This document shows positions 19,530-22,421 of a stretch of DNA of 64,000 bases, piece by piece. The position numbers were made by a program, and so were the translations under genes. The notes beneath the pieces were generated by a model. It ran no database searches, had not been told where the DNA came from, and was given only the letters and a program-made list of their open reading frames with translations. Numbering within the stretch: the stretch's first letter is position 1; every line of letters begins with the position of its first letter. Location of the stretch: assembly GCF_054482595.1 (NCBI RefSeq), contig NZ_CM137008.1; one strand, written 5' to 3'.

Positions 19530-21212
19530 ATGAAGTCTGCATTAAAGAAAAGTGTCGTAAGTACCTCGATATCTTTGATACTGGCATCTGGTATGGCTGC
19601 ATTTGCTGCTCATGCGGCAGATGATGTAAAGCTGAAAGCAACCAAAACAAACGTTGCTTTCTCAGACTTTACGCCGACTGAATACAGTACCAAAGGAAAG
19701 CCAAATATTATCGTACTGACCATGGATGATCTTGGTTATGGACAACTTCCTTTTGATAAGGGATCTTTTGACCCAAAAACAATGGAAAATCGTGAAGTTG
19801 TCGATACCTACAAAATAGGGATAGATAAAGCCATTGAAGCTGCGCAAAAATCAACGCCGACGCTCCTTTCATTAATGGATGAAGGCGTACGTTTTACTAA
19901 CGGCTATGTGGCGCACGGTGTTTCCGGCCCCTCCCGCGCCGCAATAATGACCGGTCGAGCGCCCGCCCGCTTTGGTGTCTATTCCAATACCGATGCTCAG
20001 GATGGTATTCCGCTAACAGAAACTTTCTTGCCTGAATTATTCCAAAATCATGGTTATTACACTGCAGCAGTAGGTAAATGGCACTTGTCAAAAATCAGTA
20101 ATGTGCCGGTACCGGAAGACAAACAAACACGTGACTATCATGACAACTTCACCACATTTTCTGCGGAAGAATGGCAACCTCAAAACCGTGGCTTTGATTA
20201 CTTTATGGGATTCCACGCTGCAGGAACGGCATATTACAACTCCCCTTCACTGTTCAAAAATCGTGAACGCGTCCCCGCAAAAGGTTATATCAGCGATCAG
20301 TTAACCGATGAGGCAATTGGCGTTGTTGATCGTGCCAAAACACTTGACCAGCCTTTTATGCTTTACCTGGCTTATAATGCTCCGCACCTGCCAAATGATA
20401 ATCCTGCACCGGAGCAATATCAGAAGCAATTTAATACCGGTAGTCAAACGGCAGATAACTACTACGCTTCCGTTTATTCTGTTGATCAGGGTGTAAAACG
20501 CATTCTCGAACAACTGAAGAAAAACGGACAGTATGACAATACTATTATTCTCTTTACCTCCGATAATGGTGCGGTTATCGATGGTCCTCTGCCGCTGAAC
20601 GGGGCGCAAAAAGGCTATAAGAGTCAGACCTATCCTGGCGGTACTCACACCCCAATGTTTATGTGGTGGAAAGGAAAACTTCAACCCGGTAATTATGACA
20701 AGCTGATTTCCGCAATGGATTTCTACCCGACAGCTCTTGATGCAGCCGATATCAGCATTCCAAAAGACCTTAAGCTGGATGGCGTTTCCTTGCTGCCCTG
20801 GTTGCAAGATAAGAAACAAGGCGAGCCACATAAAAATCTGACCTGGATAACCTCTTATTCTCACTGGTTTGATGAGGAAAATATTCCATTCTGGGATAAC
20901 TACCACAAATTTGTCCGTCATCAGTCAGACGATTACCCGCATAACCCCAACACTGAGGACTTAAGCCAATTCTCTTATACGGTGAGAAATAACGATTATT
21001 CGCTTGTCTATACAGTAGAAAACAATCAGTTAGGTCTCTACAAACTGACGGATCTACAGCAAAAAGATAACCTTGCCGCCGCCAATCCGCAGGTCGTTAA
21101 AGAGATGCAAGGCGTGGTAAGAGAGTTTATCGACAGCAGCCAGCCACCGCTTAGCGAAGTAAATCAGGAGAAGTTTAACAATATCAAGAAAGCACTAAGC
21201 GAAGCGAAATAA
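19530..21212 (+). CDS. ydeN: Ser-type sulfatase (arylsulfatase family), secreted (560 aa)
   Basis: Signal peptide; sulfatase signature S-G-P-S-R in HGVSGPSRAAIMTGR; track ORF begins 11 codons upstream, I chose MKSALKK. Confidence 0.85.
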   Translation: MKSALKKSVVSTSISLILASGMAAFAAHAADDVKLKATKTNVAFSDFTPTEYSTKGKPNIIVLTMDDLGYGQLPFDKGSFDPKTMENREVVDTYKIGIDKAIEAAQKSTPTLLSLMDEGVRFTNGYVAHGVSGPSRAAIMTGRAPARFGVYSNTDAQDGIPLTETFLPELFQNHGYYTAAVGKWHLSKISNVPVPEDKQTRDYHDNFTTFSAEEWQPQNRGFDYFMGFHAAGTAYYNSPSLFKNRERVPAKGYISDQLTDEAIGVVDRAKTLDQPFMLYLAYNAPHLPNDNPAPEQYQKQFNTGSQTADNYYASVYSVDQGVKRILEQLKKNGQYDNTIILFTSDNGAVIDGPLPLNGAQKGYKSQTYPGGTHTPMFMWWKGKLQPGNYDKLISAMDFYPTALDAADISIPKDLKLDGVSLLPWLQDKKQGEPHKNLTWITSYSHWFDEENIPFWDNYHKFVRHQSDDYPHNPNTEDLSQFSYTVRNNDYSLVYTVENNQLGLYKLTDLQQKDNLAAANPQVVKEMQGVVREFIDSSQPPLSEVNQEKFNNIKKALSEAK

Positions 21213-21263
21213 CTAAACCTTCATGCGGCGGAATTTTCCGCCGCCTTATTGAGCGAGATAGCG

Positions 21264-22421
21264 ATGCACGTTACAGCCAAGCCCTCCAGTTTTCAATGTA
21301 ATCTCAAATGTGATTACTGTTTTTACCTTGAAAAAGAGTCGCAGTTTACTCATGAAAAATGGATGGATGACAGCACTCTGAAAGAGTTCATCAAACAATA
21401 TATCGCAGCGTCTGGCAATCAGGTCTATTTTACCTGGCAAGGCGGTGAACCCACTCTGGCTGGCCTGGATTTTTTCCGTAAAGTTATTCACTATCAACAA
21501 CGCTATGCAGGCCAAAAACGTATTTTTAATGCATTACAAACGAATGGCATTTTATTGAATAATGAATGGTGTGCCTTTCTCAAAGAACATGAATTTCTGG
21601 TTGGTATCTCGATCGATGGCCCCCAGGAGTTACATGACCGTTACAGACGCAGTAATTCAGGTAACGGTACTTTTACAAAAGTGATAGCAGCCATCGAGCG
21701 TCTGAAATCATATCAAGTAGAGTTTAATACGTTAACCGTCATTAATAACGTTAATGTCCATTACCCTCTTGAGGTTTATCATTTTTTAAAATCTATCGGC
21801 AGTAAACATATGCAATTTATCGAATTGCTAGAAACCGGGACGCCGAATATTGATTTCAGTGGTCATAGTGAGAACACATTCCGTATCATTGATTTTTCTG
21901 TGCCTCCCACGGCTTATGGCAAGTTTATGTCAACCATTTTTATGCAATGGGTTAAAAACGATGTGGGTGAAGTTTTCATCCGTCAGTTTGAAAGCTTTGT
22001 CAGCCGTTTTTTGGGGAATGGGCATACCAGTTGTATTTTCCAGGAGTCCTGCAAGGATAATCTGGTTGTTGAAAGTAATGGAGACATTTACGAATGCGAC
22101 CATTTTGTCTATCCACAGTACAAAATTGGAAACATTAATAAATCTGAACTCAAAACGATGAACAGTGTACAACTGACAGCGCAAAAAAAACGGATTTCAG
22201 CGAAATGTCTGAAATGTGCATATAAACCTATCTGCAATGGCGGTTGTCCTAAGCATCGTATTACTAAAGTAAACAATGAGACTGTTTCTTATTTTTGCGA
22301 AGGTTATAAAATCCTTTTTTCAACCATGGTACCTTATATGAACGCCATGGTAGAGTTAGCTAAGAACAGAGTACCGCTTTATCACATTATGGATGTTGCA
22401 AAACAAATGGAGAATAATTAA
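21264..22421 (+). CDS. ydeM: Radical-SAM anaerobic sulfatase-maturating enzyme homologue (385 aa)
   Basis: CxxxCxxC motif (CNLKCDYC) and C-terminal Cys-rich SPASM-like region; immediately downstream of the sulfatase. Confidence 0.85.

Follow-up and report, generated by a model that had tools for sequence, protein, structure and literature searches.

Organization of the ydeN-ydeM locus

Two co-directional genes occupy positions 19530 to 22421 of the window, the 64,000-nucleotide stretch of DNA analyzed here (coordinates are on its plus strand unless stated otherwise). The first, ydeN (19530 to 21212), encodes the 560-aa precursor of a predicted Ser-type, formylglycine-dependent (S1) sulfatase, and the second, ydeM (21264 to 22421), encodes a 385-aa protein of the anaerobic sulfatase-maturating enzyme (anSME; radical SAM/SPASM) family. 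The initial annotation had placed a sulfatase-maturase pair here; both open reading frames are present, and the RefSeq annotation of the identical stretch in strain XH990 gives the same boundaries. The ydeM start is ATG 21264 in RefSeq and in homologues, with an in-frame TTG upstream at 21249. YdeN is identical to K-12 b1498 at 559 of 560 residues (sole change, E295D) and YdeM to b1497 at 380 of 385, none of the five changed residues being a cysteine. The pair is an already annotated E. coli operon whose content matches databases and papers, which give the same interpretation; as the initial annotation supposed, it is not a novel system. The gene pair is real, strongly conserved, and, apart from its poorly defined substrate, ordinary.

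A two-gene cassette with a conserved intercistronic hairpin

The ydeN-ydeM pair is present in 5382/5426 (99%) complete E. coli genomes. A sulfatase gene with a maturase gene directly downstream was found at 18 loci in 11 lineages, from Escherichia through Fusobacterium, and copies of the cassette also occur on plasmids. All open reading frames within 8 to 10 kb were clustered across 20 loci, and no conserved neighbor besides the sulfatase and maturase emerged; no small open reading frame consistently accompanies the cassette, and no glycosidase, sugar transporter, or sugar kinase travels with it. In the same clustering, a nearby porin was common only to Aeromonas and an E. coli paralogue. Inspected by eye, the neighbors are unrelated housekeeping genes or assorted sugar genes. 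Thus, ydeN and ydeM form a self-contained two-gene cassette, and the functional coupling proposed in the initial annotation is supported beyond adjacency by this recurrence and by the lack of any further conserved neighbor.

A GC-rich hairpin (GCGGCGGA-AUUU-UCCGCCGC; 21225 to 21244), followed by CUUAUUG, lies between the two genes, with a centroid fold of -16.3 kcal/mol. An equivalent hairpin is found between the genes of every proteobacterial cassette and is absent in Fusobacterium, and 5/9 of the pairs show compensatory change among eight sequences. The hairpin was not called by a terminator scan because its tail is T-poor. A permissive Rfam scan of positions 15000 to 27000 matched no known RNA family, and the hairpin is therefore not a catalogued element. 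Its fold energy is not exceptional relative to shuffled sequences in an 81-nt context (z = -1.25), and it is the conservation that suggests a leaky terminator or a stabilizer of the mRNA 3′ end. Such an element probably holds maturase expression below that of the sulfatase. A second, palindromic hairpin (22475 to 22500; 9-bp stem, six GC pairs), 54 nt past the ydeM stop codon, was called by the terminator scan on the minus strand; the plus-strand stem lacks a T-run, and the hairpin possibly marks the end of the operon.

Upstream spacer and regulation

The 401-bp spacer between ydeO and ydeN contains two putative CRP-box-like sites. Site 1 (AGTGACATTCATCACA; 19235 to 19250) has one mismatch to TGTGA-N6-TCACA, and site 2 (TGTGACTAACTTCACT; 19449 to 19464) abuts the -35 element of a putative sigma-70 promoter-like site (CTTACA, 18-nt spacer, TAAAAT; 19463 to 19492) that matched the scanned consensus at 9/12 positions. 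Two such boxes were found in the 64-kb window versus 2.04 expected, and both fall inside this spacer. Their shared position ahead of ydeN and the listing of this gene among the genomic-SELEX targets of CRP (PMC3105977) are suggestive of CRP control, which we regard as putative. Site 2 is centered ∼42 bp upstream of the start site projected from the -10 element (19487 to 19492) and would form, with the promoter, a putative class II arrangement. Sigma-70-like sites occur in the region at chance level, and the site at 19463 to 19492 is therefore a candidate only.

Published data point to additional regulators. AraC with arabinose binds upstream of ydeN, and deletion of araC raises ydeMN expression (PMC3738151, PMC10878103). 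The reported AraC site was not located in the spacer by a scan for the half-site TAGC-N7-TCCATA, which gave no match there at ≤2 mismatches (43 matches were returned by the scan versus 50 expected). ydeN is repressed by GadX (PMC4918353) and drops along with mal/xyl genes at pH 4.4 (PMC10746267), and ydeM is upregulated in gut-adapted E. coli in mice fed a high-fiber (high-MAC) diet (PMC10878103). We propose that ydeNM is subject to catabolite-type control, of which the CRP part is putative and in which AraC and GadX are the reported repressors.

YdeN and its possible substrates

YdeN matches the Pfam Sulfatase profile (PF00884) over its whole length (1-301/301; E = 1.3e-70), and it also matches 88 sulfatases in the PDB. 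The sulfatase signature (C/S)-x-P-x-R-x4-T-G-(R/K) is present as S132-G-P-S-R136-A-A-I-M-T-G-R (19923 to 19958), in which conversion to formylglycine is expected at S132, in agreement with the Ser that the initial annotation had read at the modified position. The SGPSR segment is invariant in 17/17 aligned family members and aligns with CGPSR/SGPSR of the S1_19 crystal structures. Residues D66, D67, K183, H185, D345, N346, and K364 are likewise invariant in the 17 homologues and match motifs of the S1_19 structures. Secretion, which had also been proposed, is consistent with the N terminus, which by eye resembles a Sec signal peptide: MKSALKK, a hydrophobic stretch, and AHA/AD provide a basic n-region, a hydrophobic core, and an AxA motif, with no twin arginine. 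The signal peptide read from the translation comprises residues 1 to 31 (19530 to 19622), with predicted cleavage after AHA. By its domain, signature, and metal-binding and catalytic residues, YdeN is an S1-type sulfatase, for which formylglycine formation and hydrolysis of sulfate esters are predicted.

The substrate and role of YdeN are poorly defined, as the initial annotation noted; according to a 2024 paper, no substrate of YdeN had yet been described (PMC10878103). When the YdeN family profile was searched against the PDB, the top seven matches were S1_19 carrageenan sulfatases acting on Gal-4-sulfate (E = 7e-68 to 1.5e-60), and the next match was ∼13 orders of magnitude weaker (1.6e-47). 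These enzymes (ZgCgsA, 9HH2-4; PsS1_19A, 6BIA/6B0J; PsS1_19B, 6PSM) rank first among the solved relatives whether single sequence, family profile, or fold is compared, although the Foldseek ranking that also places S1_19 first is weak corroboration, as the AF2 model built from a 17-sequence alignment was poor (pLDDT 58.9). YdeN is most similar to the characterized S1_19 members, a subfamily placement by similarity rather than by phylogeny, and the identity in Foldseek structural alignments is ∼25 to 27%. YdeN has the x-G-P-S-R signature and catalytic residues in common with these enzymes. However, wild-type 9HH3, from the marine bacterium Zobellia galactanivorans according to the PDB title, is Cys-type (CGPSR), whereas YdeN is Ser-type, carries a conserved ∼27-residue insertion between DDLGYGQ and STPTL (residues ∼73 to 107), and has a longer, aromatic-rich C-terminal region. 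The S1_19 carrageenan sulfatases all act on galactose-4-sulfate (PMC6923384), and a gut S1_19 member, Amuc_1182, was inactive on every glycan sulfate tested (bioRxiv 10.1101/2025.09.11.675649).

The nearest outgroup, P0122 of Plesiomonas shigelloides, is 43% identical to YdeN and collinear with it across 495 aa, the insertion included. Its gene cluster encodes a near-identical homologue of a crystallized chondroitin/dermatan-sulfate 4-O-endosulfatase, a KdgM porin, an anSME, a DUF2264 protein, and an aga-type GalNAc PTS/tagatose pathway. The Plesiomonas anSME and YdeM likewise share 43% identity, and the sulfatase and maturase therefore seem to have diverged together. P0122 differs in being Cys-type, in having its maturase upstream, and in lying within a large catabolic locus, whereas ydeNM is a bare two-gene cassette. 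Another YdeN outgroup adjoins a PL8 lyase.

Because the S1_19 Gal-4-sulfatases are closest and the Plesiomonas outgroup lies in a chondroitin-sulfate/GalNAc cluster, we tentatively suggest, with less than even confidence, that YdeN acts on a small sulfated galacto-configured sugar. Candidate substrates would be Gal or GalNAc sulfate from fragments of chondroitin sulfate, mucin, or carrageenan, which primary degraders would release and which could enter the periplasm through general porins. This assignment is weak in view of the low S1_19 identity, the inactivity of Amuc_1182, the bare cassette, and an induction by a dye that could point to a different class of substrate. Alternatively, the substrates of YdeN in the gut may be sulfate esters other than those of carbohydrates, such as phenolic/aryl sulfates, steroid/bile-acid sulfates, or xenobiotic conjugates. 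YdeM would mature YdeN in the same way, but the sulfatase would serve to scavenge sulfate or to deconjugate such compounds and not to catabolize sugars. The PDB matches of YdeN include steryl-sulfatase and arylsulfatase A, the cassette brings no sugar-processing genes, and ydeN was the sole transcript induced under anaerobic conditions by FD&C Red 40, a sulfonated azo dye (PMC10653809), which could point to aromatics. Deletion of ydeN, however, left dye depletion unchanged (PMC10653809), and the lead of the carbohydrate sulfatases among solved relatives, the glycan-utilization loci that house the nearest outgroups, and the tracking of sugar-catabolic genes by ydeN expression, with AraC and CRP implicated, all argue against this alternative. 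We consider a non-carbohydrate substrate unlikely.

Purifying selection on both genes

In a comparison of E. coli with E. albertii, ydeN has a dN/dS of 0.014 and ydeM one of 0.046, with dS saturated. Selection on both genes is strongly purifying, and the pair is not decaying. These values bear on the idea that ydeNM is a cryptic remnant, silent or non-functional, that hitchhikes in an AT-rich acquired region. The GC content of the pair is indeed low (38 to 44%, versus 47 to 53% in the neighboring ydeP), no sulfatase phenotype was found in literature searches, and the genes are occasionally disrupted, for example by an IS3 insertion in ydeM of strain 88COLEC. Along with the low dN/dS, the catalytic residues that are all intact across genera, the near-universal presence of the pair in E. 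coli, and its measurable, regulated transcription make a remnant highly improbable.

YdeM and its partnership with YdeN

YdeM matches Pfam Radical_SAM (4.5e-22) and SPASM (6e-06), as well as the NCBIfam model TIGR03942, "anaerobic sulfatase maturase," at 503 bits (equivalog cutoff, 349.45; profile 1-362/363). The E-values exclude chance as the source of the profile matches of both YdeN and YdeM. YdeM residues 4 to 359 align end to end with the crystallized anSMEcpe of Clostridium perfringens (PDB 4K36-4K39; E = 4e-63). The radical-SAM motif C12-N-L-K-C16-D-Y-C19 (21297 to 21320), a CxxxCxxC shared by both enzymes, aligns with C15/C19/C22 of anSMEcpe, and the SPASM region (22032 to 22298) supplies the cysteines of the two auxiliary clusters (C257, C263, C278, and C328; C315, C318, C324, and C345), all eight of which match those of anSMEcpe. 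The catalytic Asp that follows the third auxiliary Cys (D279 in YdeM) is also common to both. No variation was seen among 16/16 YdeM homologues at D279 or at any of these 11 cluster cysteines. The CxxxCxxC motif and Cys-rich C terminus on which the initial annotation had based an anSME-type assignment are therefore borne out: YdeM retains the radical-SAM cysteines, just as YdeN aligns with the sulfatase signature. YdeM is a member of the anSME family, predicted to carry out SAM-dependent oxidation of Ser or Cys to formylglycine. The natural substrate of anSMEcpe itself is Cys-type, whereas the partner of YdeM is Ser-type.

Both proteins are still termed putative in the literature (PMC8379841). 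We found no experiments on YdeM or YdeN activity in the searchable literature, and the activity of YdeM in vivo is a prediction. Benjdia et al. reportedly observed in 2007 that deletions of aslB and ydeM were without effect on Cys-type maturation. The Klebsiella Ser-type sulfatase is not known to be matured in E. coli under aerobic laboratory conditions unless AtsB is co-expressed.

YdeM could also be imagined as not dedicated to YdeN, serving as a SPASM maturase of a small peptide or as a general maturase whose main clients are AslA, YidJ, or a 565-aa paralogue of YdeN. YdeM has lower-scoring matches to RiPP maturase models (DynA, 218 bits; DarW, 163 bits), and anSMEs accept both Cys and Ser substrates. 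The paralogue, present in 114 E. coli genomes, is Ser-type and has no maturase of its own, and service by YdeM in trans is therefore plausible. However, the anSME equivalog alone passes its threshold, with all RiPP models far below theirs; the maturase is strictly adjacent to a sulfatase in the 11 lineages, with no conserved small open reading frame; and service in trans would add to, not replace, a role for YdeN. We judge a non-dedicated YdeM to be very improbable. A dedicated partnership fits the composition of the YdeN clade, which is bounded by a fall in identity from ≥54% to ≤45% at its nearest relatives: its sulfatases are all Ser-type, whereas the nearest outgroups are Cys-type. To our knowledge, Ser is oxidized by anSMEs only and not by FGE, and a dedicated anSME therefore makes sense for a clade that is Ser-type throughout.

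Proposed mechanism

We consider it likely that ydeN-ydeM is a two-gene operon that yields an active periplasmic sulfatase only at low oxygen. YdeN would be translated with its Sec signal peptide, and YdeM, with its SAM-binding [4Fe-4S] cluster and two auxiliary ones, would bind the S132-G-P-S-R segment of unfolded cytoplasmic YdeN before export. Cleavage of SAM by YdeM would generate a 5′-deoxyadenosyl radical that takes the C-beta hydrogen from Ser132, which would be oxidized to C-alpha-formylglycine with D279 as the base. Exported YdeN would then hydrolyze sulfate esters through the hydrated formylglycine, aided by K183/H185/K364 and by a divalent metal that D66/D67/D345/N346 would bind. The proposal builds on the observed motifs, family memberships, conserved pairing, and purifying selection; its chemistry is modeled on Clostridium anSMEcpe and Klebsiella AtsB/AtsA. 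That YdeN is instead a formylglycine-dependent phosphonate-monoester or phosphodiester hydrolase, to which its weak matches to PehA and Pfam Phosphodiest and its bare NCBI name ("sulfatase-like hydrolase/transferase") might point, is scarcely credible given a PehA score of 67 bits against a cutoff of 900 and close structural and sequence relatives that are all sulfatases.

For YdeN as a sulfatase matured by YdeM, the textbook model of the expected function is AtsA/AtsB of Klebsiella pneumoniae, a periplasmic Ser-type arylsulfatase and an adjoining three-cluster radical-SAM maturase that converts Ser to formylglycine before export. In Klebsiella, the maturase gene comes first, and AtsA is an arylsulfatase under sulfur and tyramine control, whereas ydeNM is apparently under carbon-catabolite, AraC, and GadX control and YdeN is closest to carbohydrate sulfatases.

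A possible desulfation module

New here are the recurrence of the cassette, the Ser-type uniformity of its sulfatases, the selection values, the conservation of the hairpin, and the S1_19 and Plesiomonas relatives. Speculatively, and with low confidence, ydeNM could be a horizontally mobile, self-sufficient "desulfation module" with which gut bacteria that are not themselves degraders desulfate galacto-configured sugar sulfates in the periplasm. The module would combine a Ser-type sulfatase with a maturase of its own and an intercistronic hairpin that sets the ratio of the two, and its hosts would include E. coli, Yersinia, Aeromonas, Proteus/Providencia plasmids, and Fusobacterium. The sugar sulfates would be set free by primary degraders of chondroitin sulfate, mucin, or carrageenan from the diet, and once desulfated, the sugar would feed into Gal/GalNAc pathways already in place. 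In that case, YdeN would represent a sister group to the marine S1_19 carrageenan sulfatases that is Ser-type, associated with hosts, and new in its specificity.

Recombinant sulfatases are usually produced in E. coli, whose own capacity to form formylglycine is only partly understood and whose two putative anSMEs are AslB and YdeM (PMC8379841). Conversion of YdeN Ser132 by YdeM under anaerobiosis, if demonstrated, would settle the role of one of the two, and the substrate of YdeN, once identified, would reveal whether sulfated glycans from the host or the diet support cross-feeding by Enterobacterales, both commensal and pathogenic. These are useful goals of characterization for ydeNM rather than signs of a new kind of system. 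Outside the window, the genome also holds the sulfatase/putative-maturase pairs aslA-aslB and yidJ-yidF, whose sulfatases, AslA and YidJ, we take to be Cys-type.

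Identification of the ydeN-ydeM pair

Two co-directional open reading frames (ORFs), 19497/19530-21212 and 21249/21264-22421, were recovered in the ORF listing of 17000-25000, and the identical stretch in strain XH990 is annotated with genes at exactly 19530-21212 and 21264-22421 (window coordinates). The upstream neighbors (ydeP, safA, and ydeO) and downstream neighbors (yddA, yddB, pqqL, and gadBC) correspond to the K-12 b1495-b1501 region, which has the opposite orientation in the K-12 record. The encoded YdeN and K-12 b1498 differ at a single residue, and YdeM and b1497 differ at five, none of them a cysteine; the stretch thus comes from the chromosome of an E. 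coli other than K-12, and the pair is the known ydeN-ydeM pair. By megablast, the stretch 19130-22710 is present in 5,382/5,426 complete E. coli genomes, with at least 80% of the query covered at one place in 5,322 of these, and the matched genomes carry the annotations "sulfatase-like hydrolase/transferase" (ydeN) and "anaerobic sulfatase maturase" (ydeM). Occasional natural inactivation is exemplified by strain 88COLEC (NZ_CP070906.1), in which an IS3-family transposase interrupts ydeM, leaving separate "radical SAM" and "SPASM domain" fragments. A 40-codon ORF (22387-22509, minus strand; yneP in K-12, "hypothetical protein" in RefSeq) lies antisense to the 3′ end of ydeM and contains a palindrome with a 9-bp stem (22475-22500). 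Elsewhere in the window, 702-6123 corresponds, by the annotation of the identical XH990 stretch, to an ECSE_1600-family autotransporter gene that is marked as frameshifted in strain XH990.

The initial annotation described the first gene as a secreted sulfatase with serine at the modified position, and this description was borne out. YdeN matches Pfam Sulfatase across the entire profile (E = 1.3e-70) and carries S132-G-P-S-R-A-A-I-M-T-G-R, the Ser-type form of the S1 signature. As read from the translation, its N terminus (MKSALKK…AFAAHA/ADD) resembles a Sec signal peptide and lacks a twin arginine. The usual metal-binding and catalytic residues (D66/D67, K183/H185, D345/N346, and K364) are all invariant in a 17-member family alignment. 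Every sequence test applied placed YdeN in the S1 sulfatase family as a predicted member. A family-specific insertion of ∼27 residues (…VVDTYKIGIDKAIEAAKKSTPTL) follows DDLGYGQ, at residues ∼73-107 (window ∼19746-19850), and separates the first metal-binding motif from the remainder of the catalytic domain.

The second gene had been read as a radical-SAM enzyme of the anaerobic sulfatase-maturating (anSME) type, with a CxxxCxxC motif and a Cys-rich, SPASM-like C terminus. In agreement, YdeM matches Radical_SAM and SPASM and scores 503 bits against the curated threshold of 349 for the NCBIfam equivalog "anaerobic sulfatase maturase," while the peptide-maturase models all fall far below their own thresholds. 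Residues 4-359 align with the crystallized Clostridium perfringens anSME (E = 4e-63), the structurally defined enzyme anSMEcpe that YdeM resembles, and the alignment matches C12/C16/C19, D279, and the eight auxiliary-cluster cysteines (C257, C263, C278, and C328; C315, C318, C324, and C345). Across 16 homologs, none of these twelve positions varies. YdeM likewise classifies as a predicted anSME on each sequence criterion tested, and the initial observation is confirmed, with chance excluded. E. coli has two putative anSMEs, AslB and YdeM (PMC8379841), a designation that other papers cite to Benjdia et al. 2007; literature searches found no paper demonstrating the activity of either protein. 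The pair is real, was correctly interpreted, and is already known; the initial assessment that it merits functional study but is not a new system is right. What is added here is comparative support for the coupling of ydeN and ydeM, a conserved hairpin between them, and a substrate lead, namely, sulfated galacto-sugars from host or dietary glycans.

Pairing across lineages and the probable need for a dedicated maturase

Homologous loci were gathered via protein searches, contig look-ups, and a scan of one genome per species. Protein searches identified YdeN orthologs with 70 to 84% identity in Leminorella, Salmonella, Citrobacter, Yersinia, Proteus, Aeromonas, Shewanella, Iodobacter, and Anaerobiospirillum. 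A YdeM homolog lies downstream of the sulfatase, on the same strand, in 18/18 loci with enough downstream sequence; these cover 11 lineages that extend from Escherichia as far as Fusobacterium (54% identity). Pairing in multiple lineages is much better evidence for functional coupling than adjacency in a single genome. When all ORFs within 8 to 10 kb were clustered, none besides the pair was common to more than a few lineages. The flanks of the cassette are unrelated between loci, with IS elements in places. Among plasmid matches (H23-H34), the cassette is found on E. coli plasmids ranging from about 100 to 390 kb (98 to 99% identity) and, as a 69.5%-identical version, on conjugative plasmids of Proteus and Providencia; an inserted "ydeM-ydeN structure" segment has been described in a plasmid comparison (PMC8615141). 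Both genes have a GC content of 38 to 44%. In a comparison of E. coli with E. albertii, the dN/dS ratios are 0.014 (ydeN) and 0.046 (ydeM); these values are approximate because dS (about 1.4 to 1.6) is near saturation. The conserved pairing, unrelated flanks, plasmid copies, and low dN/dS indicate that ydeN-ydeM is a mobile, self-contained unit under strong purifying selection.

Every YdeN family member carries SGPSR, and the nearest relatives outside the family (≤45% identity) carry CxPSR. It is established that the oxygen-dependent formylglycine-forming enzyme (FGE) acts on cysteine only and that serine is oxidized solely by radical-SAM anSMEs. A Ser-type clade always accompanied by its own anSME fits this rule, and YdeN would therefore be active only while the oxygen-labile clusters of YdeM survive, which implies activity only under anaerobic or micro-aerobic gut conditions. 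The pair is functionally similar to Klebsiella AtsA/AtsB, also a Ser-type sulfatase with a radical-SAM maturase, and nothing in its anatomy is unexpected for such a pair.

Intercistronic hairpin and upstream regulatory region

A GC-rich hairpin with a perfect 8-bp stem (21225-21244) begins 12 nt past the ydeN stop and is followed by CUUAUUG. Despite sequence change, the spacers of all proteobacterial cassettes examined (loci L003, L004, L008, L010-L013, L016, and L017) contain an equivalent hairpin whose tail is moderately U-rich; the short Fusobacterium spacers lack one. In an eight-sequence alignment, 5/9 hairpin pairs show compensatory change; no Rfam family matches the hairpin. The hairpin may act as a leaky terminator or as a stabilizer of the mRNA 3′ end, setting the sulfatase:maturase ratio with the maturase lower. 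The ribosome-binding site of ydeM, weak in comparison with the strong AGAGGA preceding ydeN, fits a maturase held below the sulfatase level.

The two genes are co-transcribed, ydeN is a direct AraC target, and ydeMN is overexpressed on araC deletion (PMC10878103); AraC is found upstream of ydeN only when arabinose is present (PMC3738151). Transcription of ydeN is reduced by GadX binding (PMC4918353), and at pH 4.4 ydeN is down about 40-fold, alongside malE, malM, xylF, and treC (PMC10746267). Under anaerobic exposure to FD&C Red 40, ydeN was the sole gene induced, yet it was dispensable for dye reduction (PMC10653809). Genomic-SELEX targets of CRP include ydeN (PMC3105977), and CRP boxes with a single mismatch occur at just two places in the 64-kb window (putative sites at 19235-19250 and 19449-19464), both within the 401-bp ydeO-ydeN spacer. 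Because the second abuts a promoter-like −35/−10 (19463-19492), the arrangement is suggestive of a putative class II CRP-dependent promoter. A pattern scan found no convincing AraC site. A terminator-like hairpin with a T-run just past ydeO (19176-19208, plus strand) suggests transcription of ydeN from a separate promoter and not by read-through from safA-ydeO.

Relatives and possible substrate of YdeN

In a single-sequence search of solved structures, the best relatives of YdeN were sulfatases of SulfAtlas subfamily S1_19, and the seven best matches to the family profile were all S1_19 (ZgCgsA, PsS1_19A, and PsS1_19B; E = 7e-68 to 1.5e-60; next match, 1.6e-47). Enzymes of this type remove galactose 4-sulfate in carrageenans (PMC6923384; PMC5066984). 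A Foldseek comparison with the predicted structure yields the same ranking, a weak corroboration because the model is poor (pLDDT 58.9). Predicted placement in S1_19 is supported by sequence comparison, with room for a separate subfamily given the Ser-type signature, the insertion, which S1_19 crystal structures lack, and how isolated the clade is (at least 54% identity within the family and at most 45% outside in an all-database search).

The nearest outgroup, the YdeN-like Cys-type sulfatase P0122 of Plesiomonas shigelloides, is 43% identical to YdeN and collinear with it, including the ∼27-residue insertion. Its locus (contig WEJY01000073.1, 1-15348) also encodes a near-identical homolog of the crystallized chondroitin/dermatan-sulfate 4-O-endosulfatase 6J66 (E = 2e-289), a KdgM-type porin, a DUF2264 protein, an anSME 43% identical to YdeM, and an aga-type PTS with a tagatose-bisphosphate pathway and a DeoR regulator, and is apparently a chondroitin/dermatan-sulfate disaccharide utilization locus. 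Another outgroup adjoins a PL8 polysaccharide lyase, and a further one adjoins a GH29 fucosidase. Taken together, the relatives of YdeN act on sulfated, mostly galacto-configured glycans.

The initial annotation had called the substrate poorly defined, and according to a 2024 paper no substrates of YdeN have been reported (PMC10878103); a gut enzyme of subfamily S1_19 had no activity on the substrates assayed (bioRxiv 10.1101/2025.09.11.675649). The ydeN-ydeM cassette contains neither a glycosidase nor a transporter, and we therefore tentatively propose, with somewhat less than even confidence, that the substrate is a small sugar or oligosaccharide sulfate that enters the periplasm via general porins. 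In Aeromonas and in an E. coli paralog, the sulfatase gene is immediately preceded by a porin gene.

This second Ser-type YdeN (565 aa, 77% identical) occurs in 114/5,426 complete E. coli genomes; the six matches listed include STEC-named strains. At two paralog loci (L005, 2615-5544; L006, 1497-4426), the upstream porin gene is of the classical type and the downstream side carries an IS110 element. The paralog has no dedicated maturase and presumably depends on YdeM in trans.
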